IMG/VR virus record: IMGVR_UViG_3300044691_000566
Span: 95,747 to 159,746 of that record
Reading direction: 5' to 3' (one strand)
DNA length: 64,000 nucleotides
DNA from: a virus
A model generated the notes under the pieces. That model was not told the DNA's origin and ran no database searches. It saw only the letters and a program-made list of their open reading frames with translations. This document shows positions 6,105 through 49,565 of the stretch, one piece after another. The translations under genes were made by a program, and so were the position numbers. Within the stretch, counting starts at the first letter, position 1. Every line of letters begins with the position of its first letter.

Positions 6105-6207
6105 GAGGGCGCCACCCCGAAGGATGACGCCCTCCCATGCCCCGCCTGGCCCTGCCAGACCTCGCCACGCCGAGCCTCGCCCAGCCCCGCAAGACCTGAC
6201 TCTGTCA
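6105..6207 (-). ncRNA. GGY/NN repeat RNA unit A3
   Basis: TTGACA-N17-CAGAGT; NN = GG TG GA TC GT GA CT AG CA GG AT; cUUCGg hairpin. Confidence 0.75.
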
Positions 6208-6231
6208 TCCCTGCCCGCATCTGTCAAAGCT

Positions 6232-7883: not shown

Positions 7884-9278
7884 ATGACGACACCGCCCGG
7901 ATACTCGGGGCAGGAGATCGACACCGAGGGCGTATACGGCAACGCGGGTGCTGCTCCTCGGGGTACCCAGAACCTGGTCTCCAACACGGAGACCGCCACC
8001 CCGGCCGGTGCCGCATACGGTGGCGGCGCCAACGTCGTGACCGGCGGCACCCTCACCGGCACCCCGGACACCGAGGGGATCGGCACGGGCGCCAACGGCC
8101 CGTACGTGCCCAACCCGCCGCCGCTGCTCACCGGCACCCTGGACACCCAGACCCTGGGCTGGCCGCTGACCTCCGGGGTCACCCAGGCGTACCGGGCCCC
8201 CAACACCACCATCGGCCTGGTCGGTGCGGCCGGTGCGTTCGACACCACCCGCACCGACACCCCGATCACCGACGGCTCGATCCGCAACGACTACCAGCAG
8301 AACCTGAGCGGCACCCTGGAGTCGGGCAACATCGGCGCCATCGGCCCCGTCAGTGCCCTCGTGCCGGTCGCCCCCTCCGGCACCCCCACGGTGGCCGCAG
8401 GCGCCCGTACCGCGACCGTGACGTGGTCCACGGTGGCCGACCCGGACGCCACGGCGCCCGTGCTCGGATACGTGATCATCGGCTCCACGGGCGGCACCAC
8501 GTACACGGGCCGGGGCGTCACCACCGCCGTGGTGACCAACCTGGTCCCCGACCTGCCGTACTCGTTCCAGGTGCTGGCCCGGAACCGCAACGGCAACGGC
8601 CCGCTGGGCACCGCCTCCGCCACGGTGACGCCGTACAACCCGGACGAGCCGGACGTCGGCAAGCCCGGCGGCCTGGACCCGTACTGGGCCCAGAACCCGA
8701 TCTACGGCCCCGACGGCACCGTGAAGGCGGGCTCGGGCCTCGCGGGACGCCCCGCCGCGCCCACGAGCGTCGTCCTGACCGGCAATGGCACCGTGGGCGG
8801 CGTGGTGGCCACCTGGGTTGCCCCGGCGACCGGCGGCACCGTGAGCAGCTACACCGTCACCCTGTCCTCGGGACAGACCAAGTCGGTGTCGGCCAGCACC
8901 CTGACGACCACCTTCACCGGGGTCGCCAACGCCACCGCGATCACCGCGACGGTCACCTCGGTGGGTTCGGTGGCCAACGCCACCTCCACGGCTTCGGCTG
9001 TCTTCGGCAAGCCCACGGCCCCGGCGGCTCCCACCGCCACCAGCCCGTCGGCGGGCACCATCCACGTGGTGTGGACCGCCCCGACTTCGGGCGCCCCGAT
9101 CAACTACATCGTCACCCTCGCCGGTCAGGACACCACCTCCCACACGGTGGCGGGCACCATCTTGACCAACGACTTCACCGCCCTGACCACCGGCCACGTC
9201 GACACCGTCACGGTGGGGGCGCAGGGGTCGGTGTCCACCACCACCTCGGCCGCCTCCGGCAACGTCACCGTCACCTGA
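7884..9278 (+). CDS. fibronectin type III repeat virion protein
   Basis: Three Fn3-like repeats (ATVTWS...YSFQVLARNRNGNG; VATWVAP...SYTVT; VVWTAP...NYIVT). Confidence 0.8.
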   Translation: MTTPPGYSGQEIDTEGVYGNAGAAPRGTQNLVSNTETATPAGAAYGGGANVVTGGTLTGTPDTEGIGTGANGPYVPNPPPLLTGTLDTQTLGWPLTSGVTQAYRAPNTTIGLVGAAGAFDTTRTDTPITDGSIRNDYQQNLSGTLESGNIGAIGPVSALVPVAPSGTPTVAAGARTATVTWSTVADPDATAPVLGYVIIGSTGGTTYTGRGVTTAVVTNLVPDLPYSFQVLARNRNGNGPLGTASATVTPYNPDEPDVGKPGGLDPYWAQNPIYGPDGTVKAGSGLAGRPAAPTSVVLTGNGTVGGVVATWVAPATGGTVSSYTVTLSSGQTKSVSASTLTTTFTGVANATAITATVTSVGSVANATSTASAVFGKPTAPAAPTATSPSAGTIHVVWTAPTSGAPINYIVTLAGQDTTSHTVAGTILTNDFTALTTGHVDTVTVGAQGSVSTTTSAASGNVTVT

Positions 9279-10072: not shown

Positions 10073-10942
10073 ATGGCGCTCTTCTGGAACGACCGGCAGT
10101 ACGTCTCCCAGTACGCGGTGGACGTGGTGGGCATCCACCTGCTCCGCAACCAGGTCCCGGTGGACGCCGACTCCGGCGTCGCCCTCACCATGGTCTCGGA
10201 GAACACCGGCAGCGAGGTCTTCTCCCGCGCCGCCACCCACAACGCGACCGGCGACTACTCGGCGTCGTTCAACAGCGTGGAGACCTCTGTCCCCGGGTCC
10301 TACACGCTGGCGTGGACCTACGTCCTGACCGGGCAGCCGGAGTACCTGGAGTCCGGCATCGAGGTCGGCCCGGCTGCCCCCTCGTACGACAATCTCGCGC
10401 CGGGGATGAAGGACATCGTGGAGGGGGTCATGATCCGCATCGCGGACACCATCGACTCCCCGGGCGGTGGCCCGAATTTGTTGACATATGTCCAGAGCAA
10501 GTTCGGCCGGGGCCGGATCGCCGAGCTGATGCGGATCGCCCTGGGCCGCCTCAACACGGTCGCCCAGCCCCATCAGACCTACACCCTGGACGGCAATGGG
10601 GGCGCCACCTTCCCCTTCGCCCAGTGGGGTCCGCTGCTGGAGGCCGTGACCTGGGCGGAGACGCTCAAGCATCTGATCCGCAGCTACAACGAGCAGCCGA
10701 ACTTCATCGGCTCCGGCAACATCTCCCGCCTGGACCGCCGGGACTACGTCCAGCGCTGGCGCGACTCCCTCATGGACGAGGAGGCCGCGATCAAGGGGCA
10801 GCTCGATGTCTTCAAGATCGCGTCCATGGGCCTGGGCCGACCGGCTGTGCTGATTTTCGGGGGCGTCTATGGTCGGTACGGGCCCACTCGCATGTCGGGT
10901 AGCGTGGCCGCGCGGCCCCGTTACTGGACGAGATTCTACTAA
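10073..10942 (+). CDS. putative head-to-tail adaptor
   Basis: Position, and motifs LKHLIRSYNEQP and LDRRDY.QRW reminiscent of cluster C adaptors. Confidence 0.55.
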   Translation: MALFWNDRQYVSQYAVDVVGIHLLRNQVPVDADSGVALTMVSENTGSEVFSRAATHNATGDYSASFNSVETSVPGSYTLAWTYVLTGQPEYLESGIEVGPAAPSYDNLAPGMKDIVEGVMIRIADTIDSPGGGPNLLTYVQSKFGRGRIAELMRIALGRLNTVAQPHQTYTLDGNGGATFPFAQWGPLLEAVTWAETLKHLIRSYNEQPNFIGSGNISRLDRRDYVQRWRDSLMDEEAAIKGQLDVFKIASMGLGRPAVLIFGGVYGRYGPTRMSGSVAARPRYWTRFY

Positions 10943-10960
10943 AACCGGACATTACGGCCA

Positions 10961-11065
10961 TGATAGGGTCAGGTCCTGCAAGGCACGGCAGGGCTAGGCG
11001 AGGTCTGGCAGGGTACGGCTGGGCACGGCAGGGGGAGGGCGATCACCTACGGGTGGTCGCCCTCC
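10961..11065 (+). ncRNA. GGY/NN repeat RNA unit B1
   Basis: TGATAGGGTCA; NN = AA AC AG TA GA CT AG AC TG AC AG; cUACGg hairpin. Confidence 0.75.
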
Positions 11066-11089
11066 GTTGTTGACAGATCCAGTAGGACA

Positions 11090-11185
11090 TGACAGAGTCA
11101 AGTCGTCCTCATTCACCTGGGGCGGGCGTCGGTCGATCCGTGGTGCTCCCTTTCGCAACAAGGGCACGGATTGACCGACGTCTTT
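11090..11185 (+). ncRNA. non-repeat hairpin small RNA inside array B
   Basis: TTGACA-N17-CAGAGT leader, then an 18-bp stem GGCGTCGGTCGATCCGTG/CACGGATTGACCGACGTC with two G.U pairs and a TTT tail. Confidence 0.55.
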
Positions 11186-11204
11186 GTACTCCCGTCGGTA
11201 ACCC

Positions 11205-11288
11205 TGATAGAGTCAAGTCCTCGGCACGGCTAGGTAGGGCAGGGTTTGGTAGGGCAGGGAGAAGGGGTCCTCTACGGAGGACCCCTTC
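11205..11288 (+). ncRNA. GGY/NN repeat RNA unit B3
   Basis: TGATAGAGTCA; NN = TC AC TA AG AG TT AG AG; cUACGg hairpin followed by GTTTT. Confidence 0.75.
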
Positions 11289-11344
11289 GTTTTGCCCCCG
11301 CAGGCCCGGTAGAGTCCGGCCTCCACCGTCAGAGAGGACCCTCA

Positions 11345-11554
11345 ATGCCCGACAGCGAGATCATCAGGGACTGGTACACCTCCAGCGCCTGCGGGGCGAA
11401 CAACTCCTGCCTGGAGGCCCGCACTTACGCCGACGGGTCGGTCGAGATCCGCAACTCCCAGGACCCGAAGGGCACCCTCCTCCGGTTCACCGAGGACGAA
11501 TGGTCCGCCTTCCTCGTGGGCGCCCGCGCCGGGGAGTTTTCCACCGGGGCATGA
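11345..11554 (+). CDS. DUF397-family protein
   Basis: WYTSSACGANNSCLEA...VEIRNSQDP...LRFTEDEWSAFL matches the actinobacterial DUF397 consensus. Confidence 0.85.
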   Translation: MPDSEIIRDWYTSSACGANNSCLEARTYADGSVEIRNSQDPKGTLLRFTEDEWSAFLVGARAGEFSTGA

Positions 11555-11556
11555 CC

Positions 11557-11640
11557 TGATAGAGTCAAGTCCTCGGCTAGGCATGGCGGGGCTCGGCTTG
11601 GCACGGCAGGGAGAAGGGGTCCACTACGGTGGACCCCTTC
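11557..11640 (+). ncRNA. GGY/NN repeat RNA unit B4
   Basis: TGATAGAGTCA; NN = TC TA AT GG TC TT AC AG; cUACGg hairpin. Confidence 0.75.
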
Positions 11641-11656
11641 GTCGTTGGGAGGACGG

Positions 11657-11836
11657 ATGCGCATCGGTCAGGAGCCGCCCCGGCGGGAGAAGCTGCGGGG
11701 CTACGTGATCACCGGCTGCATCAAGTGCGGCGGCCGGTCCAAGTGGATCCGGCGTGGACCGCACGACTGCTGCTTGCGCAAGGACATGAGCCGGGCCCGG
11801 GAGAAGCAGGAATGGCGCCGGACCCTCAGGGATTGA
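11657..11836 (+). CDS. small basic Cys-rich protein (59 aa)
   Basis: RBS GGAGG; CIKC...HDCC; its stop is the TGA of the next leader. Confidence 0.6.
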   Translation: MRIGQEPPRREKLRGYVITGCIKCGGRSKWIRRGPHDCCLRKDMSRAREKQEWRRTLRD

Positions 11837-11932
11837 TAGAGTCAAGTCCCTGGCAAGGCTGGCCAAGGCCCGGTAGGGCACGGCTTGGCCCGGCAGGGCA
11901 GGGAGAAGAGCCCCACTACGGTGGGGCTCTTC
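11834..11932 (+). ncRNA. GGY/NN repeat RNA unit B5
   Basis: TGATAGAGTCA; NN = CT AA TG AA CC AG AC TT CC AG AG (one GCC triplet); cUACGg hairpin. Confidence 0.75.
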
Positions 11933-11956
11933 GTCGTTGACGGACCCCGCAGTTCA

Positions 11957-12070
11957 TGACAGAGTCAAGTCCTGCATGGCCGGGCGGGACGTGGCGCGGT
12001 GTGGCATGGCTAGGTAGGGCCGGGCAGGGCATGGGCTGTGGAGATGGGGCCTCTTTCGGGAGGCCCCATC
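11957..12070 (+). ncRNA. GGY/NN repeat RNA unit B6
   Basis: TTGACG-N17-CAGAGT; NN = AT CG GG GT GC GT AT TA AG CG AG AT (one GAC triplet); UUCG hairpin. Confidence 0.75.
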
Positions 12071-12074
12071 GTCT

Positions 12075-12172
12075 TGATAGAGTCAAGTCCCTGGCTGGGC
12101 TTGGTATGGCTGGGCTTGGCGTGGTGAGGCATGGCAGGGGGAGAGGGCCCGGATTTTTAAATCCGGGCCCTC
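12075..12172 (+). ncRNA. GGY/NN repeat RNA unit B7
   Basis: TGATAGAGTCA; NN = CT TG TT AT TG TT GT GA AT AG; hairpin GAGGGCCCGGATTTTTAAATCCGGGCCCTC. Confidence 0.75.
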
Positions 12173-12182
12173 CGCCATATGG

Positions 12183-12212
12183 TTGACACTCCAGGAATCC
12201 TTGGAGTACAGT
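12183..12212 (+). promoter_or_regulatory. sigma70/HrdB-type promoter with a palindromic operator in the spacer
   Basis: TTGACA-N18-TACAGT; spacer holds ACTCCAGGAATCCTTGGAGT. Confidence 0.7.
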
Positions 12213-12250
12213 CACCTTCGCCAGAGAACGCCGAGCCCCAGGGAGGGCCC

Positions 12251-12829
12251 ATGCAGGTCCGTTTGACTCTTACCGGAACCACATCGCTGCTCATGCACAA
12301 CGCGCGGCTGTCCGACCCGTTGGACCCCTACACCAAGATGCTCAAGGCCATCTCCTCCAAGCGCACCAAGACGGAGGACGACCACGACGACATGGCGCGC
12401 GTCGAATTCCTCGGCGGCCTGTACTTCGACCCGGAGGCCGGGCCGTACGTTCCCGGCGTCAACGTCCACCGCTGCCTGGTGGAGGGCGCCAAGCTCAACA
12501 AGCTGGGCCGCCACGTGGAGCGCGGCATCATCGCCCTGGACGAGATCTGCCCGCTGGGCTACGCGGGGCCGCGCACGGAGGAGGCGCTGTGGAAGGACAA
12601 AAACTTCGTCTCCCGGCTGTCCGTCGGCGTCACCACCTCGCGCGTCATGCGCACGCGCCCCGAATTCCCGGTGTGGGGCCTGGAGGCCGACATGCTGGTG
12701 GACACCGGCCAGCTCGACCTGGAGCAGGTCCGCACCATCGCCGAGAAGTCCGGACAGATGATCGGTCTCGGCGACTACCGTCCCCGGTTCGGGCGATTCA
12801 CCGTCGAGGTCGTCGAACTCCAGGGCTGA
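12251..12829 (+). CDS. stand-alone RAMP / Cas7-like RNA-binding protein (Vipr-like effector candidate)
   Basis: 192 aa; N-terminal strand VRLTLTGTTSLLMH, PYVPGVNVHRCL, RTRPEF..W and C-terminal G-rich loop IGLGDYRPRFGRFTV are RAMP hallmarks; adjacent to the GGY/NN array; RBS GGGAGG. Confidence 0.8.
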   Translation: MQVRLTLTGTTSLLMHNARLSDPLDPYTKMLKAISSKRTKTEDDHDDMARVEFLGGLYFDPEAGPYVPGVNVHRCLVEGAKLNKLGRHVERGIIALDEICPLGYAGPRTEEALWKDKNFVSRLSVGVTTSRVMRTRPEFPVWGLEADMLVDTGQLDLEQVRTIAEKSGQMIGLGDYRPRFGRFTVEVVELQG

Positions 12830-12868
12830 TCCCGCCAGAATCTGTACCACCGAACAGAAGGAGGACGA

Positions 12869-13432
12869 ATGGCCGCCAAGCCGTTCGAGCCCAAGGGCGA
12901 TGTCGCCCGCTGGGTCCCCGTCTACGAGAATCTGCGCGACCTGGAGCCGGGGGTGCTGGTCACGTACGAGCAGCTCTCGGAGTGGGCCGGAGTCGATGTC
13001 CGGCGCGACCGCAGCCCCCTCGTGCAGGCCGAGGACAAGCTCCTGAAGGAGCACGGGCGCGGCGTCGCCAACGAGCGGGGCGTGGGGTACCGGATCATGC
13101 TGGCCTCCGAACACGGTGAGGCCGCCCGGCGCCAGACCCGGAAGGCCGACCGCCGGATCAGGAAGGCCATAACCCTTCTGACCGTGGCCGACCGCAATCA
13201 CCTGACCCCGCAGCAGCGGCAGAAGTACGAGAGTCAGGCCGGGGCTCTCCAGGCCGTCCGGGACATGACCAACCGCCTGGCGCGGCGGACGGCCGCGCTG
13301 GAGGAGGGTCTGAAAGCGGTCCGTCGGGAGACCAAGGAGACCACGGCCGGTCTGTCCGACCGCTTGGAGCGGCTGGAGGCCCGGTTCGCGAACGTTCCGG
13401 GCGATGCCCCGGCGGACAGCACCACGACCTGA
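12869..13432 (+). CDS. winged-helix plus coiled-coil protein, co-transcribed with the RAMP gene
   Basis: VTYEQLSEWAG...NERGVGYRI wHTH-like N-terminus and long helical C-terminus; RBS GAAGGAGG. Confidence 0.7.
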   Translation: MAAKPFEPKGDVARWVPVYENLRDLEPGVLVTYEQLSEWAGVDVRRDRSPLVQAEDKLLKEHGRGVANERGVGYRIMLASEHGEAARRQTRKADRRIRKAITLLTVADRNHLTPQQRQKYESQAGALQAVRDMTNRLARRTAALEEGLKAVRRETKETTAGLSDRLERLEARFANVPGDAPADSTTT

Positions 13433-13507
13433 TAAGGTCACCCCCATCGGGATTTTAAAATCCCGCACAGACGACAGGCCCGTTCATGGGGAACGGGCCT
13501 GTCGTCA

Positions 13508-13541
13508 TGTCCGGAGTCCTCCAAGCCCGGCGAAGAGGTGA
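13508..13541 (+). promoter_or_regulatory. late-promoter motif TGTC-N20-GAAGAGGTGA
   Basis: Motif copy. Confidence 0.7.
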
Positions 13542-13563
13542 AACCGCACCTCTGGAGGACGTC

Positions 13564-15336
13564 GTGCCGTACACCGTCACCCTCAACCCCGGGCTGGTCG
13601 ATGTGGCGCTGCCCGGCGGCGTCCTGGCCCAGGGCAGCCACTCCTACACCTTGACGGACGAGCAGTTCCTGATGCTGAGCCCCACGGCCGCAGCAGTGCT
13701 GTTCTCCGCCTCCGGCCAGACCGGCGGGGGCTCGGCCTGGTCGATCGACCCCACCGCCTACGGCGCCAAGGGGGACGGCAAGATCGTCACCGACGGCGCC
13801 ATGACCTCCGGGTCCGCTGTCCTGACTTGCGCCACGTCGACCCCTTTCGTCTCGGCGGATGCCACCGCAGGCAAGCTGGTCATGGTCAAGGGCGCCGGGC
13901 CCAACGGCGTGACCTGCCTGATCACCACGGTCAAGACCTTCACCGACTCCGGGCACGTGGTGCTCAACGCCAGCGCCGCCACCACGATCAGCAACGCCCT
14001 GGTCATGTGGGCCACGGACGACACGGTGGCCTTCCAGGCGGCCATCGACGCCGCCGTGGCGTACGGCCTGGCGCACAGCTACACCGCGACCATCAAGGTC
14101 CCGGCGGCCACCGGCCGGTTCTACGGCATCGGCGGGGCCCTGAAGACCGGCGGCGCCACCAAGGGCAACAGCCAGCTCACGCTGCCGGTGGTGCCCACCA
14201 CCGGGGACAAGCTGACCATCGTCTTCGACGGTCCGGGGGACAGCTCCGCCGTGCAGCACTGGCAGCAGCTCGTCCCGCAGACCGGCGGCGCCACCCTGGT
14301 CAGCTTCTTCGTGCACGCCTCGTCGTCGGCGCAGATCACCAGCATCAACAACGGCGGCAACTCCGCTGTCATCGGCGGCCCGTCCCAGCCGGGCGGCTTC
14401 GGCGTCAACCCGGGCGTCTACACCAACGTCAACGCGGTCTTCCGCAACCTCTCGATCCTGACCAGCCACAGCGCCTTCGGCCTGACCCTGAGCGCGCTGG
14501 ACCTGTCCGGCATCGCCAACGCCAGCCTGGAGAACTTCGCCTACGGCACCGCCGGATCGGTCACCGGCACCGACTACGTGAGTCCCGGGGTCTTCGCGAC
14601 GGGCCTGTCCATCGGCCTGTTGATGCCCGCCTCCGGCAACAACGACAACTGCGTGGTCCGCAATGTGACCTGTCACGGCGGGTTCACGTACGGGTTTTTC
14701 GCCACCGAGCACTGCGACATCTCCGCGATGCGCATCCTGTACTGCTGGGCGGCCTTCTGCCCGGTCGGCACCTACTACAGCTCGGTCGGCTCCACGCACG
14801 CCATCGTCGCCACCAATCTGAGCATCGAGTCGTGCACCTACGTCCTCTACGTCATCGGCGCGGGCGGTGGCGGCCTGGGGCCCTTCCTGCACCTGAGGAT
14901 CGACACGGAGACCTCCACCCCCCGGTTCGGCGACAACAACGGTGGTGTCGGCCTGGCCGCCGCACGCGGGGACGTCTACCTGAGCGGCCTCTACACGGCG
15001 GCGTCGCTGACCCTGGACAACCCGGTGGGCTTCGACATCATCGACGGCCAGCGGTCCTACCCGGTGATCTCGGTCGCGGCCAACTACGCCGTGCTGACCA
15101 CCGACGAGGTGATCCAGGTGGACTGCACGGCAGCCGCCCGGACCGTCACGCTGCCGACGGCCGTGGGCCGCAACCGCCGGATCCTGATCACCAAGATCGA
15201 CTCCAGTGCCAACGCGGTGGTCGTCGCCACCACGGGGGGACAGACCGTCAACGGTGCTGCCCCGGCGACCATCACCGGTCAGTGGACCTCGAAGGAGTAC
15301 TTCCCCACCCCGGCCGGGGTATGGATCGCCCGATGA
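13564..15336 (+). CDS. beta-helix (pectate-lyase-like) spike/fibre protein
   Basis: YGAKGDG...TDDTVAFQAAIDAA motif; RBS GGAGG before GTG 13564. Confidence 0.75.
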   Translation: MPYTVTLNPGLVDVALPGGVLAQGSHSYTLTDEQFLMLSPTAAAVLFSASGQTGGGSAWSIDPTAYGAKGDGKIVTDGAMTSGSAVLTCATSTPFVSADATAGKLVMVKGAGPNGVTCLITTVKTFTDSGHVVLNASAATTISNALVMWATDDTVAFQAAIDAAVAYGLAHSYTATIKVPAATGRFYGIGGALKTGGATKGNSQLTLPVVPTTGDKLTIVFDGPGDSSAVQHWQQLVPQTGGATLVSFFVHASSSAQITSINNGGNSAVIGGPSQPGGFGVNPGVYTNVNAVFRNLSILTSHSAFGLTLSALDLSGIANASLENFAYGTAGSVTGTDYVSPGVFATGLSIGLLMPASGNNDNCVVRNVTCHGGFTYGFFATEHCDISAMRILYCWAAFCPVGTYYSSVGSTHAIVATNLSIESCTYVLYVIGAGGGGLGPFLHLRIDTETSTPRFGDNNGGVGLAAARGDVYLSGLYTAASLTLDNPVGFDIIDGQRSYPVISVAANYAVLTTDEVIQVDCTAAARTVTLPTAVGRNRRILITKIDSSANAVVVATTGGQTVNGAAPATITGQWTSKEYFPTPAGVWIAR

Positions 15337-15338
15337 CC

Positions 15339-15424
15339 TGATAGAGTCAGGGCCTCGGTATGGCTGGGCCGGGCTCGGCTGGTCGGGGCATGGCAGGGGA
15401 GGCCCCCACTTCGGTGGGGGCCTC
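15339..15424 (+). ncRNA. dispersed GGY/NN repeat RNA unit C
   Basis: TGATAGAGTCA; NN = TC AT TG CG TC TG GG AT AG (one GTC triplet); cUUCGg hairpin. Confidence 0.7.
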
Positions 15425-15429
15425 AGCCG

Positions 15430-15463
15430 TGTCCGGGGTCCGGCGAGCCCGGTGAAGGGGTGA
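15430..15463 (+). promoter_or_regulatory. late-promoter motif TGTC-N20-GAAGGGGTGA
   Basis: Motif copy. Confidence 0.7.
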
Positions 15464-15490
15464 AGAGATCCCCTTGACCCGGAGGCCGAC

Positions 15491-15916
15491 GTGGCGCGGT
15501 GGCTGTTCCCCTCTGACCGTCTGGTCTTCCGGTACGGCACGCCCGGAACTCCTCTGTACTCGCCTGCGGCCGAGAGGGTCGTCATCTGCACCGACTCGGC
15601 CGGAACGGCCCTCGCGGGCATCCAGGCGCCCGACGGGACCACGATCGACGCCACCTTGAGCATCGGCCAGGACTGCCTGATCCCCGAGTTCCTGGGCCCC
15701 GACGGCCTCACCACGCTGTACGCCAGGAACAGCGCCGGGATCGTCTCCAAGCTGTACGCACAGTCCGGCCAGTTCTTCGCGGGCTCCGCGATCAACCTGC
15801 CCAACGTCACCGCGCCCCCGGCCACCCCGACCGGCGGCGGTGTGCTCTTCGTCCAGGCGGGAGCACTGAAGTACAAGGGCAGCTCCGGCACGACCACCAC
15901 CATCGCTCCGGCCTAG
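15491..15916 (+). CDS. virion fibre-associated protein
   Basis: C-terminal PTGGGVLFVQAGALKYKGSSGTTTTIAPA, common in actinophage fibres. Confidence 0.7.
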   Translation: MARWLFPSDRLVFRYGTPGTPLYSPAAERVVICTDSAGTALAGIQAPDGTTIDATLSIGQDCLIPEFLGPDGLTTLYARNSAGIVSKLYAQSGQFFAGSAINLPNVTAPPATPTGGGVLFVQAGALKYKGSSGTTTTIAPA

Positions 15917-15924
15917 GAGACACC

Positions 15925-16632
15925 ATGCCCCTGGGGATCCCGCAGCCGAGCGGCATGGTGCCGCACAGCCGCAGCACCATGCAGCCGTACTACATTCGCG
16001 AGCCCCAGCGGTGGGCCGTCGACCAGGAGCGCCAGCGGCACCTCCAGGCGCTGTACTCGGTCGGCGAGTGGACCATCTTCTGTCTCATGTGGCACCTGGA
16101 GGACTTCCAGAACGGCCTCGTGACGCGGTGCTCGGTCTGCTACAACCGCTTCTCCCAGGCGTACAAGCAGGGCGAGCGCAACAAGTGCCCGGACTGTTTC
16201 GGGACGACTTTCGAGGGCGGCTTCAAGGCGATCATCGTGCGCCCGGCGATCTTCGGCGACACCGACGAGGCCACCAAGTACCAGGCGCGTGGCGTCGTGG
16301 ACTCCGACGACCTGGACATGGAGTCGACCCCCGACTTCCGTGTCCGGAGCGGGGACTACTGCTTCCGCTCCACGGGCCACAGGTTCTTCCTCCGGGTGCC
16401 GGAGCGCGTGACCCTGCGGACCGGCTTCGCCACCCCGTACCAGCGCTCCATGGCCGTCGGCTACAACCACGCGCGGGCCTCCCTTGAGGACCGCAGCGCG
16501 GTGGCCTACACCATCCCTCCCAACGAGGCCGACCTGATCCAGATCCTCAGCGTCGCGGTCACCGAGCCGGTGTCGTTCGGGGCTTTCGAAGTGATCAGAA
16601 GCCCCCTGATCCCCATCGACGACCTCGCGTAA
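15925..16632 (+). CDS. putative neck / head-closure protein with Zn ribbon
   Basis: RCSVC...KCPDCFGTTFEGG; position in the neck region. Confidence 0.55.
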   Translation: MPLGIPQPSGMVPHSRSTMQPYYIREPQRWAVDQERQRHLQALYSVGEWTIFCLMWHLEDFQNGLVTRCSVCYNRFSQAYKQGERNKCPDCFGTTFEGGFKAIIVRPAIFGDTDEATKYQARGVVDSDDLDMESTPDFRVRSGDYCFRSTGHRFFLRVPERVTLRTGFATPYQRSMAVGYNHARASLEDRSAVAYTIPPNEADLIQILSVAVTEPVSFGAFEVIRSPLIPIDDLA

Positions 16633-43983: not shown

Positions 43984-44295
43984 GTGACACTCGACATGAT
44001 GGCGGCGCAGATCGTGATGCGCGCCCGCCAGATCGAGCGCGCCCTGCACGATCCCGGACCCTGGACCATCAGGAACCACGGCCACACCTACCCGGCGCGC
44101 AAGGTCATCGGTGACGACCACGTGACCTTCTATGCCGTCGTGGACATTCACCACCCGGTCCTGGAGCTGTGCGCCGGAGAGCGGTCGATCCAGAACGGGG
44201 GACTGGTGGCCTTCAAGACCGTGGAGAACGTGGAGGGCCCGACCCAGGTCTCCTGGGAGTTCCTGGTGGCCAATTTCGAGCAGGTTGCCGCATGA
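43984..44295 (+). CDS. hypothetical protein
   Basis: RBS GGAGGAG before GTG 43984. Confidence 0.6.
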   Translation: MTLDMMAAQIVMRARQIERALHDPGPWTIRNHGHTYPARKVIGDDHVTFYAVVDIHHPVLELCAGERSIQNGGLVAFKTVENVEGPTQVSWEFLVANFEQVAA

Positions 44296-46880
44296 CGGCT
44301 ACGGCGACCGAGGCCCCCTCCGGCCAGTCGCCGGAGGGGGCTCTCTACTTTTCGCCTCGCGGTCTGTACCCGTTCCAGGCCGACCACATAGCGCGGATCT
44401 ACCTGGGCATCCAGTCCGGCATACCGGAGTGGATGATCGTCTGGGACACCGGGCTGGGGAAGGCGGAGCCCATATCCGAGCCCGTGCTGACTCCGGTTGG
44501 CTGGGTTCCCATGGGCGACTTGCGAGTGGGACATCAGGTCATCGCGGCGAACGGCCGACCGGCGAAGATCCTTGCTGTGCACCCGCAGGAGTCCCGCGAG
44601 GTGTACCGAGTGGCCTTCTCCGACGGCTCCTGGACCAGGTGCAGTCCCGAACACCTGTGGACGGTCTCCTACTGGGGACCTGACCGATCCTCGGGCAAGC
44701 AGGTTCGGGTCCGGCGGAGCAAGACCGTCACCTTGCGCCAGCTCATGGCTGAGGGGGTCACCACTCCGAAGGGGCGTCGGAAGTTCTCCATCCCCATGAC
44801 CGCCCCGGTGCAGTACCCGGAGCGCAATCTGCCCATGGACCCGTATGCCCTCGGGGTCGTCCTCGGCGACGGCAATGTGAACCCTCGCGGATATGTCTCG
44901 CTGACCACCGACAAGGAGATCATCGACGCCTTGGCCGTCCCGGGGTCCCGGTACGAACACCGTTCTGCTGGCGTGGCGGTCCTGAACACCAACGCGTGGA
45001 GAGAGGTCCTGACGGGCCTCGGACTGGCCGGACGCCGGGCCTGGGAGAAGTCCGTCCCAGAGATCTACCTGCGAGCCCCAGAGGACAGCCGCAGGGCCCT
45101 CCTGGCCGGTTTGCTGGACACGGACGGGTCGCCGATCGAAGAGGGCGGAGTCGAGTTCTCCACGACCTCAGAGGCCCTGCTGGACGCGGTGATCGAGCTG
45201 ACCGAGTCGCTCGGCGGACAGGCCCGCAGCAAATCGTCTCGGTTCACGACCTACACGCACAACGAGGAGACGAAGCGGGGGCGCAAGTCCTGGCGGGTAA
45301 ACGTCAAGCTCAACGAGCAGCCGTTCCGTCTGGCGCGCAAGATGATCCGCTGGACCGAGCCGACTAAGTACCCGGTCCAGCGAATCATCGAGTCCATCGA
45401 GCGCGTGGAGGATGAGGATTCGGTCTGCATCACCATCGACCGCTCAGACGGCCTCTACCTCACCCGCAGCCACATCGTCACGCACAACAGCCATGCCGCC
45501 ATGCGGCTGACCACCCTCGGCTTCGAGGACGACGCGGTGGACTTCGTGCTGCTGGTGTGCGAGCGGGGGAAGCTCAAGGAGTGGCAGGCGGACTTCGAGG
45601 AGTTCACCACGCTCGACACCCGGATCCATCACGGGCCGTCCCGGAACGGGAAGCTGGCCAAGCTCGGGCTACCTCAGGTCTTGATCACCACCTTCGAGAC
45701 CGGCAAGGCCGATCTGGTGGTGATGGAGAAGACCGGCCGCAAGCGGCGCACGTTCGAGACCGGTCCGCTGCTCACGCGGATACTCGAACACTCCAGACGT
45801 CCCATGATCATCTTCGACGAGGCCGACCGGCTGAGCAACCGGTCGGCCGCAAACTATCGGGCGTATGAACACGTCCTCAGGACCTTCCGTAAGGTTTTTA
45901 AAATCCCCGTCCTCATGCTGACCGGGACTCCGATCCGGCGGGACTGGGAGGGCTCATTCAACCAGCTCCGCCTGCTCCGACCTGCATCAATGCCTCTCGT
46001 AGGGGAGTTCGAAAAGTACTTCGTACGGGGGAGGGACGACTACGGCCGGGCCCGGTACCACGACTACCGCATGCCGGAGTTCGCCAACCTCTGCTCGCCC
46101 ATGCTGCTGGCCAAGTCCAAGACCGACCCCGACGTCATCGCCCAGTTCCCCGTGTCGACCGAGGAGGCGTTCTGGGTGGACCTGGAGGGGGAGCAGAGGA
46201 AGTTCTACGATTTTGTCGCGGAGCTGGACGCCCCGGGTCAGATGGCGGCTCTCCGGCAGATCTGCGCCCACCCGGCGGCCCTCCTCCACTCGGCCACCGA
46301 GGGCAAGTCCAAGCTGGCCAGGGCCCTCGTGGACGAGTTCGGCGAGGACTACATACGCTCGCTGCCCTCGGCGAAAACCGACGCCCTGGTCCGCTACGTG
46401 GAGCCGATCGTCAAAGGTCAGGACGCCAAGGTTCTGGTCTTCACCTTCTTCGGCCCCTCGGTGATACCGCACCTGCGCGCGGCACTGACCGCCCGGCACG
46501 TCCCGGTCTTCACCCACGACGACGAAGACGGCATCGAGAATTTTAAGAAGCACCCGGGGGGTGGCGTCCTGCTCGCCTCCGACGCGGTGGCCCGGGGGAT
46601 CAACCTGCCCGAGGCCAGCTACCTGATCGAGTACGACGTGGCTTCGACGTTCGGCCTGCGGACCCAGCGGCTGAACCGGGCCTCCAGGATCGGCAAGGGC
46701 GGCCCCACACTCACCATCCGGACCATGCTGGCGCGGGAGAGCCTTGAGATCGCGCTGCTGCACAACATGCTGGAGGGCAACGCCCAGGCCGACGCCCTGC
46801 TCGGTCACGGTGTGGACGGCTCGGAGTTCATGACGGCCGCCATGCGGCGGAAGATCCTCACCGAGGGCATGGGGGAATGA
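44292..46880 (+). CDS. SNF2-like SF2 helicase interrupted by an intein
   Basis: LYPFQ, DTGLGK|S (split by the intein), FDEAD, LTGTP, ARGINL, QRLNRASRIG. Confidence 0.85.
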   Translation: MTATATEAPSGQSPEGALYFSPRGLYPFQADHIARIYLGIQSGIPEWMIVWDTGLGKAEPISEPVLTPVGWVPMGDLRVGHQVIAANGRPAKILAVHPQESREVYRVAFSDGSWTRCSPEHLWTVSYWGPDRSSGKQVRVRRSKTVTLRQLMAEGVTTPKGRRKFSIPMTAPVQYPERNLPMDPYALGVVLGDGNVNPRGYVSLTTDKEIIDALAVPGSRYEHRSAGVAVLNTNAWREVLTGLGLAGRRAWEKSVPEIYLRAPEDSRRALLAGLLDTDGSPIEEGGVEFSTTSEALLDAVIELTESLGGQARSKSSRFTTYTHNEETKRGRKSWRVNVKLNEQPFRLARKMIRWTEPTKYPVQRIIESIERVEDEDSVCITIDRSDGLYLTRSHIVTHNSHAAMRLTTLGFEDDAVDFVLLVCERGKLKEWQADFEEFTTLDTRIHHGPSRNGKLAKLGLPQVLITTFETGKADLVVMEKTGRKRRTFETGPLLTRILEHSRRPMIIFDEADRLSNRSAANYRAYEHVLRTFRKVFKIPVLMLTGTPIRRDWEGSFNQLRLLRPASMPLVGEFEKYFVRGRDDYGRARYHDYRMPEFANLCSPMLLAKSKTDPDVIAQFPVSTEEAFWVDLEGEQRKFYDFVAELDAPGQMAALRQICAHPAALLHSATEGKSKLARALVDEFGEDYIRSLPSAKTDALVRYVEPIVKGQDAKVLVFTFFGPSVIPHLRAALTARHVPVFTHDDEDGIENFKKHPGGGVLLASDAVARGINLPEASYLIEYDVASTFGLRTQRLNRASRIGKGGPTLTIRTMLARESLEIALLHNMLEGNAQADALLGHGVDGSEFMTAAMRRKILTEGMGE
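44463..45488 (+). mobile_element. class 3-type intein with a LAGLIDADG homing endonuclease (342 aa)
   Basis: Starts AEPISEPVLTP, ends IVTHN|S; EHLW (block B Trp), SVCITID (block F Cys), LLAGLLDTDG. Confidence 0.85.
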
Positions 46881-46881
46881 C

Positions 46882-46968
46882 GAAGAGGTCCTCCGTAGAG
46901 GACCTCTTCTCCCTGCCGTGCCTGGCCTCGCCTCGCCTAGCCATGCCCCGCAAGACCTGACTCTATCA
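46882..46968 (-). ncRNA. dispersed GGY/NN repeat RNA unit D
   Basis: TGATAGAGTCA; NN = GG AT TA GA GA CA AC AG; cUACGg hairpin. Confidence 0.7.
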
Positions 46969-46983
46969 GCCCCAGGAGACCCC

Positions 46984-47268
46984 GTGGTGGACCTCGGTCC
47001 TCTCGACGATCCGGCCTACCAACCCGTTCACGCGCCGCAGGACGGCCGTGTGCCGCCCGTGGTGGCCCGCTGGGGGAAGAACTCCCAGCTCCGCTGGTTC
47101 AGGCGCTTCGGGGCCAAGCTGAAGCTCCGGGAGAACGAGGTCTCCGGGTTCTGGGTCTGGTCCGAGCACCATCGGGGGTCTCACTGCGGAGCGTGCCTCA
47201 ACGAGGAGTACGAGGGCACCGGAGTGATCATGGACGGCTGGTGCTGCTGCCGGGACAGCCGAATGTGA
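46984..47268 (+). CDS. small Cys/His-rich hypothetical protein
   Basis: RBS AGGAG; HHRGSHCGAC...WCCCR. Confidence 0.6.
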   Translation: MVDLGPLDDPAYQPVHAPQDGRVPPVVARWGKNSQLRWFRRFGAKLKLRENEVSGFWVWSEHHRGSHCGACLNEEYEGTGVIMDGWCCCRDSRM

Positions 47269-47269
47269 T

Positions 47270-47900
47270 CGACTTGCTACTACGGCATTCGTTGGAGTAG
47301 CGTCTTCCACGTCAGCCCGAGCCGCACTTGGACGCAGCTCGGTAGGGCGATGCACAGCATGACGGCGGCCAGGGGTCTGAGGAAGTCCCCGGCCGCCCAG
47401 AAGCTCCCATGAGATCAGTCCGACTAGGTAGTTCCGCTGATGGGAAGGCGGGGCGTAACGAATCCGGACCCCTGCGGGGAAGCACGGTCTCATGGGCTCC
47501 CAGGCGCTAAAGCTGAGGTCCAGCCCACCTTGCGCCGAAACGGGTAGGTCGGGACACCTCTATGAGGTGTACAGCTCCTGGTCAGCCCCACCAGGGACCG
47601 CAACGGGGCACCTATACGCACGCGGGGCCAGTCGTGATCGAGCCGGTGAATCGACTGGTCCCGCGTGTCCTCGACCGGTATGGCCTCGTTAGGCCATCCG
47701 CGCGACGGGTCAGCCCCACCCGTGGTCGGAAACGGGGCACCCTGGATCCGCGTCGGTCTCCGTTCCGGCGTGACCGGGTAGATCCGGTTTCATCCCTACC
47801 GGATCAGAAACGGTGAGCCGCGTCCTCTTGCCAGCCCGGAAACAAGGACGTAGGGGAGAGCGCACCAGTTCTAGGATCCCCTTCCGTGCAGGCGGAGGGG
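47270..47900 (+). ncRNA. large structured non-coding RNA candidate
   Basis: No ORF with phage codon bias; many stems with G.U pairs and GNRA-like loops; duplicated hairpin/pseudoknot module; boundaries approximate. Confidence 0.6.
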
Positions 47901-47952
47901 GATGGTGCGGGGCAACGACCGTACAGCCCGAACGGCCCCGGATCGGGCACAA

Positions 47953-47991
47953 AGAAGGGCCTGGACAACTCGTGGAGTCCGGGCCCTTCTT
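47953..47991. terminator. hairpin between convergent units
   Basis: AGAAGGGCCTGGAC...GTCCGGGCCCTTCT. Confidence 0.55.
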
Positions 47992-48019
47992 CATGCCCGG
48001 GAACGAGAGGTCCAACAAC

Positions 48020-48121
48020 GAAGGGGACCACCCGGAGGTGGTCCCCTTCTCCCTGCCAAGCCAAGCCCCGCCACGCCATACCCTGCCGCGCCTCGCCATG
48101 CCTCAAGACCTGACTCTATCA
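48020..48121 (-). ncRNA. dispersed GGY/NN repeat RNA unit E
   Basis: TGATAGAGTCA; NN = GA AT GA GC AG AT GT GG TT TT AG; cUCCGg hairpin. Confidence 0.7.
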
Positions 48122-48128
48122 GCCCCCA

Positions 48129-48344
48129 TTACACGGGCGGGTGCGAGTGCAGATGGTTCGTACGCTTCCTGCCGCCGCAGGAGTCCCGGTTCTGGCAGAA
48201 GGCCCCGACACCCCGGCAGTGGTAACAGGTGCTCTCGCCGGGGAGTTCGCTCGTCGGCAGCATCCCCACGTAGTGCTTGCCCTCCGCGACGCGCCCCTGG
48301 CCGAAGCACCCCTGGCAGTGCAGATGGGGTCCGGGACACAGCAT
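48129..48344 (-). CDS. small DnaJ-type CxxCxGxG zinc-finger protein
   Basis: CQGCFGQG and CYHCRGVG. Confidence 0.6.
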   Translation of the reverse strand: MLCPGPHLHCQGCFGQGRVAEGKHYVGMLPTSELPGESTCYHCRGVGAFCQNRDSCGGRKRTNHLHSHPPV

Positions 48345-48514
48345 CAGCGGCTACCGCCCCGGACCTGTCCGGTGCCCTTGCAGGTGTCGCAGCGCTCGGA
48401 CTGGACGATGGTCTTGCCGTCTGTGTTCTGCCGCTCGACCATGTTGAAGCCCCGGCCCTCGCAGGATCCGCAGTCCTGGAAGACCTCGGATTTCTTGCCG
48501 CGTCTGAATCCCAT
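48344..48514 (-). CDS. small DnaJ-type CxxCxGxG zinc-finger protein (56 aa, absent from the ORF track)
   Basis: MGFRRGKKSEVFQDCGSCEGRG...RCDTCKGTGQV; RBS GAGGGGG; TGATG overlap with the next gene. Confidence 0.65.
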   Translation of the reverse strand: MGFRRGKKSEVFQDCGSCEGRGFNMVERQNTDGKTIVQSERCDTCKGTGQVRGGSR

Positions 48515-48585: not shown

Positions 48586-48686
48586 GAAGGGGCACCCCCG
48601 TAGAGGTGCCCCTTCTCCCTGCCGTGCCAAGCCCTACCCTGCCCTGCCATGCCAGGCCGAGCCATGCCAAGGACTTGACTCTATCA
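48586..48686 (-). ncRNA. dispersed GGY/NN repeat RNA unit G
   Basis: TGATAGAGTCA, whose TGA is the antirepressor stop; NN = TT AT TC CT AT AG AG AG TT AC AG; cUACGg hairpin. Confidence 0.7.
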
Positions 48687-49565
48687 GGACTTGCGCCCTA
48701 TCGGGATCACGTCGGCGTTGCGGTCCGGCACCGCGCTCAGGGCCGGGCGCTGCTGCTGCTGGCGCAGACGCTGCTGGATCCAGACCAAACCGTCCGGAGT
48801 CACCCTTATCTCCGCAAATCCGCTGGGATTGATCCGGAGCCGGAGATGGATCAGGTGCTCGCTGTACGGCACCGGCTGGCCGTCCCTGCGGCGGTAGACC
48901 ATGCGCACCTCCTCGATCCACCTGAACAGCCGTCCAGGCCCGGTGGAGATCCCCGGGTCCCGGTTGAGGATCGCGGCGGCCTCGGCCACCGAGCAGTCCC
49001 CTTGACCGGCCGCCAGGGCGTTCCACGCCTCCGCCGGAGGCCGCAGCTCCTCCACGAGCTGCTCGGCCCTCTGTTGGGCCTCCAGGGCATCCGCCCAGCC
49101 CCTCAGGGCCTCGGCATGGCTCGGCATCTGCGGAGCCGGGGGAGCAGGCGCGGGAGGGGCGTTCAGGGCCTCCTCGATGGCCTCCATACGCATGGTCTTG
49201 ACCACGAAGTACTGCTGGGCCAGGGCGATCTGGGATTTTTTCACGTCGCCGCTCATGGCGGCGAAATAGCACGCCGCCCGGGTCAGCCGGAAGTCCACGG
49301 AGGGGCGTCCGCCCTGGTCAGGGGTTTGTGTCGGTTTGCCGACATTAACCTCCGGGGTCCGCTTGATCAGCCGGAAGTGGTCCCGGACGTCGTACAGGGA
49401 GTCGGTGCTCATCGCGGTGCGGGCCTTGCCGATCACCCCGTTGAAGTGCCGCCACTGCGTGTATCCCATCAAACCGGCCAACTCCCGGGCGAACCAGTAC
49501 TCTCCGTCGTCGTCCACGTACTTGATCGTGTCGAAGGGGGATGACGCTCGTCTCTCAATTGCCAC
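48684..49565 (-). CDS. phage antirepressor (BRO-N/DinD-like N-terminus, KilA-C/ANT-like C-terminus)
   Basis: EYWFARELAGLMGYTQW, DFRLTRAACY, IALAQQYF; AEALRGWAD...SVAEAA...VTPDG. Confidence 0.85.
   Translation of the reverse strand: MAIERRASSPFDTIKYVDDDGEYWFARELAGLMGYTQWRHFNGVIGKARTAMSTDSLYDVRDHFRLIKRTPEVNVGKPTQTPDQGGRPSVDFRLTRAACYFAAMSGDVKKSQIALAQQYFVVKTMRMEAIEEALNAPPAPAPPAPQMPSHAEALRGWADALEAQQRAEQLVEELRPPAEAWNALAAGQGDCSVAEAAAILNRDPGISTGPGRLFRWIEEVRMVYRRRDGQPVPYSEHLIHLRLRINPSGFAEIRVTPDGLVWIQQRLRQQQQRPALSAVPDRNADVIPIGRKS

Follow-up and report, generated by a model that had tools for sequence, protein, structure and literature searches.

Few large structured RNA classes of unknown function are known from bacteria and phages (among them OLE, GOLLD, ROOL and raiA), and each of these has rewarded structural study. 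GOLLD and ROOL, large phage RNAs of unknown function, hold several pseudoknots and assemble into cages made of RNA only (10.1101/2024.12.08.627333). GOLLD combines a conserved 3' region with a variable 5' region, sometimes carries a tRNA in a linker and lies near tRNA islands; ROOL, of about 600 nucleotides (nt), occurs in phages and prophages, likewise near tRNA islands, and has no known protein partner (10.1101/2024.12.08.627333). Here we describe a locus within a window of 64,000 nt (the whole stretch of DNA analyzed), positions 95,747 to 159,746 of IMG/VR virus record IMGVR_UViG_3300044691_000566. The record, 159,746 bp long, is complete and has direct terminal repeats; the window is its final part and has a G+C content of 67%. 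A previous reading of its letters (the original prediction) had placed a structured non-coding RNA (ncRNA) of about 600 nt at 47270-47900. Our sequence comparisons indicate that a genuine ncRNA gene, conserved and structured, lies at 47310-47992 and belongs to an undescribed family. The RNA core of the predicted interval stood while its ends did not: 47270-47305 is likelier a promoter, and the RNA reaches to about 47992, some 95 nt beyond the predicted end. With modest confidence we favor a free-standing gene whose product is a large structured ncRNA of an undescribed phage family, with a mode of action that would most likely resemble that of GOLLD and ROOL.

47310-47992, plus strand: predicted RNA of ~680-690 nt, both ends predicted; called on its non-coding character, folding energy (z = -4.0), homologues and G-U strand evidence.
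47274-47303, plus strand: putative sigma-70-type promoter, with -35 TTGCTA at 47274-47279, an 18-nt spacer and -10 TAGCGT at 47298-47303.
47954-47989, plus strand: 3' hairpin, probable terminator, with a 12-bp stem and the 12-nt loop CAACUCGUGGAG (47966-47977).

Periodicity of third-position G+C (GC3) collapses to 0.02-0.18 between ~47350 and 47900, versus 0.34-0.48 in the flanking genes, and translated similarity to the homologues is spread over all six frames with no single one favored, indicating that the stretch is non-coding. The minimum free energy has a z-score of -4.0 on the plus strand and -2.9 on the minus strand relative to dinucleotide shuffles. About 24 G-U cells in covarying helices (the repeated module, pseudoknot PK3 and the 3' hairpin, see below) would be A-C mismatches on the other strand, which places the RNA on the plus strand. 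High-GC DNA folds well anyway and several long open reading frames overlap the region, as would be expected if the stretch were a spacer that is GC-rich by chance, or a protein-coding gene that has diverged. Given covariation far above the slid-partner controls, the missing GC3 periodicity and the six-frame spread of similarity, however, such a spacer or gene is already disfavored, and we regard it as barely credible.

The family comprises nine distinct members of 0.65-0.85 kb, the window and eight metagenomic phage contigs: L002, L012, L017 (identical to L018), L019, L020, L021, L023 (identical to L024) and L025. Contig L002 (IMG/VR) was reached from the gene for an SNF2 helicase as a syntenic non-coding stretch, and L012 via a small CxxC protein; L017, L019, L020 and L021 were reached via alignment of the helicase, and L023 and L025 via the helicases closest to that of the window (79% identity). 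In all members the homologous RNA lies directly downstream of the helicase gene and on its strand, as found by nhmmer or, for L020, by reading the sequence. The CxxC gene had been considered as a dependable neighbor of the RNA and was dropped: four CxxC homologues lie in other contexts without the RNA, indicating that the helicase is a marker of the locus and the CxxC gene is not. The nhmmer profiles detected no second copy in the genome and no homologue in records L003, L005, L006, L008, L009 and L022 or in Mycobacterium phage Alice, and a blastn search with the region returned no match among 50,697 phage records, a set from which very close relatives of this genome may be missing. Exact-pattern scans of metagenome and genome collections with the 5' block of the locus returned only chance matches in unrelated low-GC DNA; pattern scans of IMG/VR with two PK3 cores returned the known members and chance matches, and no further members. 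Taken by its known carriers, the RNA family is that of a clade of ~150-160-kb high-GC soil phages.

The fold predicted for the RNA comprises many hairpins and four pseudoknots.

47503-47545, plus strand: PK0, module-like; loop GCCC (47523-47526) pairs with GGGU (47542-47545), inside and next to a stem GGCGC/GCGCC.
47577-47609, plus strand: PK1, module copy 1; stem S1 47577-47582/47590-47595, stem S2 GCCCC 47585-47589/GGGGC 47605-47609.
47705-47738, plus strand: PK2, module copy 2; S1 47705-47710/47718-47723, S2 47713-47717/47734-47738.
47812-47850, plus strand: PK3, an H-type pseudoknot; S1 GGUGAG/CUUGCC, S2 CGUCCU/AGGACG.

The module consists of a hairpin (S1) and of a GGGGC further downstream, directly after AAC, with which the hairpin loop GCCCC pairs. 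The original prediction had described it as a duplicated, covarying pseudoknot, and this description held up: a degenerate pattern of the module matches exactly twice in the 64 kb (47583-47612 and 47711-47741), with none expected from 100 shuffles; the stems of the two copies differ by compensatory changes (CCUGGU/ACCAGG versus ACGGGU/ACCCGU); and both the loop pairing and the module as a whole are backed by covariation across genomes. In eight module copies from six genomes 92.4% of cells are paired, versus 36-57% with slid partners, and five pairs show double changes. S2 hardly varies among these eight; the two copies of L020 carry S2 pairs with both partners changed, two from C-G to U-A and one from C-G to G-C, and an additional S2-stem pair is C-G in L023 and L025 and G-C in L021. 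Similarly, 95.8% of the PK3 cells are paired across eight members, versus 45-53% with slid partners, with double changes in six pairs. PK0 is degenerate, common to the window and L025, and weakly supported, few homologues having it.

After S1 of the module comes a linker, GUGGCC, GACC or GGUC, that has its complement either in itself or elsewhere in the RNA: 12 bp in L017 (6172-6183/6225-6236), 14 bp in L019 (5856-5869/5905-5918), and 47596-47601/47722-47727 in the window. Such matches may form a long-range or intermolecular helix. It is plausible that the linkers of the two modules pair with each other, but in GC-rich RNA such pairing cannot be told from chance.

Across eight aligned homologues the 5' block (47266-47303) keeps an invariant TTG of the -35 and TA...T of the -10 element at a spacing of 17-18 nt, and so does L020; the -35 elements of L017 and L019 are TTGACT and TTGACG. 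We had considered the 5' block as an RNA hairpin and dropped it: the spacer hairpin is lost in L017 and L019 while the -35 and -10 positions are kept, so a promoter fits the block better. The RNA would thus be transcribed from its own host-type promoter, starting near 47310, and would end at the 3' hairpin near 47990. The loop of this hairpin, CAACUYGUGGAG, is invariant in six of eight members, and those of L021 and L017 each depart from it at one position. The stems vary in sequence: 88.9% of their cells are paired, and six of the nine counted pairs show double changes. The ninth member, L020, lacks the conserved loop. U-rich sequence follows the hairpin; L017 and L019 have an additional outer hairpin and then a U tract. 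The 5' block (47288-47300, AUUCGUUGGAGUA) resembles the 3' loop (47966-47978, ACUCGUGGAGUC), and a third loop reads UCGUUA (47686-47691); the three may be candidate sites for one partner, or the likeness may be chance.

Between the ends, the helices that the original prediction had named were all found where it had placed them, and further helices were recognized.

47317-47342, plus strand: predicted hairpin P1, CCGAGC/GCUCGG, identical in L023; a different hairpin stands here in other homologues.
47357-47397, plus strand: domain C, the motif GCAYRACGG followed by a 10-14-bp hairpin (47364-47397).
47364-47397, plus strand: the helix GGCGGCC.../...GGCCGCC, named in the original prediction.
47406-47496, plus strand: domain E, a 9-bp closing stem, CCCAUGAGA (47406-47414) with UCUCAUGGG (47488-47496), around a junction.
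47554-47570, plus strand: 7-bp hairpin ACACCUC/GAGGUGU, specific to the window.
47619-47667, plus strand: 16-bp hairpin, its place taken by a copy of domain E in L023.
47680-47697, plus strand: hairpin with loop UCGUUA, the loop kept on differing stems in L023, L025 and L020.
47749-47805, plus strand: two hairpins, hpA (47749-47772; double changes by RNAalifold) and hpB (47781-47805).
47853-47939, plus strand: long-range helix GGGG (47853-47856)/CCCC (47936-47939), enclosing an 11-bp hairpin (47876-47903).

The closing stem of domain E is formed at 52 of 52 pairs in six homologues, with compensatory changes at four of its nine positions (2, 3, 4 and 5); its junction holds a hairpin CCCC-UGCG-GGGG and the conserved AAGCACGG, and this inner motif is kept in the window, L023, L025, L012 and L019. 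By single-sequence folding, the domain C motif and a hairpin of differing sequence recur in seven homologues; the motif variant in L023 is GCGCGACGG, and domain C was not found in L020. RNAalifold found double changes in 23 of 42 pairs of the 3' domain. The GGGG/CCCC helix, from RNAalifold on eight sequences, has one pair that changes between A-U and G-C between clades and is moderately supported.

As judged by these alignments, the family is modular: the 3' domain (the last module, PK3 and the 3' hairpin) is its constant core, and the 5' part varies, among other things in holding one or two extra modules. Two clear modules are present in the window, L023, L025 and L020, and one in the remaining members; the order of domains in L023 differs from that in the window. 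In the 5' part of L025, L002, L021, L017 and L019 we noticed a conserved block, GGACAGGUCGAG-N-GCCAC (for example L002 8428-8447), which is absent from the window and L023.

Relatives of the window carry, between domains C and E, an internal tRNA-like domain. It was counted in six of the nine members and measures 70-108 nt, with a copy of ~120 nt in L020; the window and L019 are without it.

L002, 8520-8627: tRNA-like domain, within an RNA copy at 8310-9055.
L012, 1510-1616: tRNA-like domain.
L017, 6042-6147: tRNA-like domain.
L021, 6648-6717: tRNA-like domain.
L023, 5191-5294: tRNA-like domain.
L025, 5350-5455: tRNA-like domain.
L020, ~6109-6228: tRNA-like domain.

The domain has a 7-bp acceptor-like stem (42 of 42 cells paired, with several compensations) and a 5-bp T stem with a canonical 7-nt T loop, UKCRAAU (UUCGAAU in L021 and L020). 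The sequence that follows begins with A, as ACGG, ACUG or ACUA (ACAA in L020), and no CCA is encoded. A tRNA cloverleaf test gave as its best match tRNA-Sec at 19.1 bits (gathering score 47) in L021, 6647-6717, covering acceptor and T arms only, and none in the window. Since L020 has the domain, two losses, in the window and in L019, are the simplest reading of its distribution. The longer copies show a covarying internal pairing (ACGGGA/UCCCGU, GUGGGA/UCCCAC or ACAGG/CCUGU), and the L020 copy resembles a class II tRNA whose anticodon loop contains an extra hairpin.

An acceptor/T-arm minihelix is the element recognized by RNase P, RNase Z and the CCA-adding enzyme. The RNA could in principle be a precursor cut into several smaller RNAs. 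In that case the tRNA-like domain of the relatives would be an RNase P/RNase Z signal, and the functional products would be a tRNA-like RNA, the 5' part and the pseudoknot domain of the 3' end. The internal minihelix with its discriminator-like A in six of nine members, and a modular family in which domains are gained and lost, would agree with this; but the window and L019 lack the domain and keep all else, and CCA is not encoded. We consider processing of this kind rather unlikely.

In Mycobacterium phage Alice (L026, NC_028986.1, Bixzunavirus; 10227-16296) the homologous helicase, gp175, is followed by two small genes and by a tRNA island with a 435-nt tmRNA on the opposite strand; by gene order, this island is in the same genomic slot as the new RNA. 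tmRNA consists of a tRNA-like domain and four pseudoknots, and the new family likewise has H-type pseudoknots and, in the relatives, a tRNA-like domain. The genome of the window has only five tRNAs and no tmRNA (ARAGORN). The RNA might thus be a derivative or a functional substitute of a phage tmRNA/tRNA island. In tmRNA, however, the tRNA-like domain is formed by the ends, with G3-U70 and a 3' CCA, whereas in the relatives it is internal and self-closed with the pseudoknots outside, pair 3:70 is G-C or A-U, and CCA is lacking; the window has no such domain at all. The RNA lies on the other strand relative to the helicase than the Alice tmRNA and has no sequence similarity to it. No tag frame was found, and tmRNA detection by ARAGORN and Rfam was negative in the window, in the genome (ARAGORN) and in the relatives. 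Under default settings ARAGORN called no tRNA or tmRNA in the RNA region or in the relatives, and at lowered thresholds it gave only inconsistent calls on the wrong strand. A tmRNA origin or substitution is, in our view, quite improbable.

The original prediction had called for a check against Rfam and could assign the RNA to no known family. We ran this check, and no known family matched: the whole window has nothing at gathering score for Rfam 15, and at E<=10 positions 46800-48400 return only sub-threshold miRNA and sRNA noise, with no GOLLD or ROOL, self-splicing intron, RNase P RNA, riboswitch or ribozyme. The relatives gave no meaningful match to a known family either, and none to GOLLD or ROOL at E<=10 (L020 and L021) or at E<=0.1 (seven relatives). 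These negatives, those of ARAGORN and the covariation of the module and other helices all support a large phage ncRNA of no known family. The genome has neither a TROVE nor an RtcB gene, so a link to Ro/Y-RNA or RtcB, which we had considered, is unlikely.

The likeness to GOLLD and ROOL is one of kind. Like GOLLD, which measures 0.7-0.9 kb, the new RNA is phage-encoded, large and rich in pseudoknots; in its family the 3' domain is constant and the 5' part modular, and six of nine members have the tRNA-like domain. It differs in that the Rfam model of GOLLD is unmatched at E<=10, in that its hosts are a high-GC actinophage clade and in that the embedded element is only tRNA-like, not a tRNA. 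With ROOL it shares being a large phage RNA with several pseudoknots; no model match was obtained, and sequence and secondary structure are unrelated. If GOLLD and ROOL are taken as a kind of phage RNA that exceeds 550 nt, contains several covarying pseudoknots and is linked to tRNA genes, the new family has all three traits: an RNA of ~690 nt, three covarying pseudoknots, and the tRNA-like domain in six of nine members together with the tRNA/tmRNA island of Alice.

For a free-standing RNA gene with GOLLD/ROOL-like action, the mechanism we propose is as follows. The RNA would be made during infection and would act in trans, as a folded RNA. It may form a compact, possibly self-associating scaffold, similarly to the 'ornate' phage RNAs GOLLD and ROOL, and this scaffold would be tied to the tRNA-related functions of the phage. 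Its contacts would be made through the repeated pseudoknot modules and the 12-nt loop of the 3' hairpin. Several points weigh against this proposal. The RNA gene is known from metagenome DNA sequence alone. Only nine sequences from two or three clades are available, so that many of the 'double changes' go back to a small number of evolutionary events, and among related sequences the shuffle control makes significance look greater than it is. Simple consensus scans called neither this promoter nor this terminator. The window has no tRNA-like domain, so that the core can do without any tRNA link; the RNA resembles GOLLD and ROOL neither in sequence nor by model; and self-assembly and any partner are purely what we infer.

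A bolder and more tentative form of the proposal is that the family is a new 'ornate' class of large RNAs, specific to one clade of large actinophages. Each member would be a scaffold of 0.65-0.85 kb with multiple pseudoknots, usually with its own tRNA mimic, which would occupy the slot of the Bixzunavirus tRNA/tmRNA island and play a role equivalent to that of GOLLD and ROOL, for example RNA-only assembly or capture of tRNA-handling factors. The hosts set the new RNA apart: it is found in high-GC soil phages, for which the helicase gene gives Mycobacterium phages as the closest cultured relatives. It is built of a repeated simple pseudoknot unit and an optional tRNA-like domain. The latter constitutes a natural experiment, members with versus members without a tRNA mimic, and a handle on why large phage RNAs accompany tRNA genes. 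The RNA is short enough for in vitro transcription, probing and cryo-EM.

The genes and units that flank the RNA bear on the remaining alternatives.

44169-46880, plus strand: SNF2 helicase gene, intein-bearing.
46885-46973, minus strand: guide-RNA-like unit, GGY-NN tract at 46913-46947.
46984-47268, plus strand: gene for the small CxxC protein, after the helicase and before the RNA.
48020-48126, minus strand: guide-RNA-like unit, GGY-NN tract at 48053-48102.
48684-49565, minus strand: Bro-N/ANT antirepressor gene, at the end of the minus-strand block 3' of the RNA.

Type III antitoxin RNAs (ToxI-like) are tandem, near-identical pseudoknot repeats of ~36 nt in variable copy number, beside a gene for an endoribonuclease toxin. 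The new RNA likewise has repeated pseudoknot units of ~36 nt in variable copy number; its modules, however, are not tandem (their starts are 128 nt apart), differ in S1 sequence and are embedded in a larger conserved fold. The neighbors are the SNF2 helicase, the CxxC protein and the antirepressor, with no toxin gene among them.

The non-coding, promoter-led stretch beside genes of DNA metabolism could also be a replication element or another cis element, in which a structured transcript primes or activates DNA replication in the manner of ColE1 RNA II or of the initiator RNAs of cluster A prophages. RNA-based origins have an actinophage precedent in the latter, ncRNAs of non-RepA cluster A mycobacteriophage prophages that are intergenic, lie beside parABS and serve plasmid-like replication in temperate phages (PMC7157519). 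Compared by description only, these share with the new RNA that they are intergenic actinophage ncRNAs, and the new RNA differs in its predicted terminator-delimited ends and its pseudoknots. The conserved 3' hairpin/terminator bounds a discrete RNA, neither iterons nor an AT-rich unwinding element were seen at the locus, the composition profile has no GC-skew sign change centered on the RNA, and the helicase is of the SNF2/'DarB-like' type, not replicative. We know of no primer RNA that has conserved pseudoknots and an embedded tRNA-like domain, which also counts against such an element; altogether we hold it to be improbable.

The original prediction had also placed the RNA between guide units, and GGY-NN units of the minus strand indeed lie directly on both sides of it; units of this type also lie next to homologues (L020 5575-5945; L023 5815-5960; L025 5075-5165 and 6030-6130). 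In each unit a leader (the reverse complement of ACTCTATCA) is combined with a GGY-NN tract and with a hairpin; in L020 three tandem units stand directly upstream of the RNA. Reading the flanking units as rightward promoters was dropped: the strand of the GGY-NN tract marks them as minus-strand guide-RNA genes. The vrRNA of the VIPR system is a tract of alternating GGY/NN units (10.64898/2026.04.26.720920), and the new RNA could be an accessory or decoy RNA of such a guide-RNA system. It has, however, no GGY-NN tract of at least four units on either strand within 47310-47992 and lies on the strand opposite to the units, which are themselves dispersed across many intergenic sites; the VIPR description mentions no RNA of this kind (10.64898/2026.04.26.720920). 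An accessory role in VIPR seems to us very improbable.

The antirepressor gene follows the RNA, on the minus strand, wherever genes were called (the window, L002, L023 and L025). The nearest cultured relatives of the SNF2 helicase are those of Mycobacterium Bixzunaviruses, at only 31% identity; uncultured relatives are numerous in soil metagenomes. The CxxC protein is Cys-rich, of 94 aa and without a Pfam family, and tblastn of it against phages gave no match; 43 homologues were found in phage-like metagenome contigs and one on a 213-kb contig of Streptomyces sp. In L009 and L010 the CxxC gene is adjoined by a TnpB (OrfB_IS605) gene. The helicase carries a LAGLIDADG intein, measuring 903 aa by its open reading frame (862 aa in the database) versus ~517 aa for intein-free homologues, and an intein is also present in the helicases of several relatives (P0046, P0071, P0085 and P0094).
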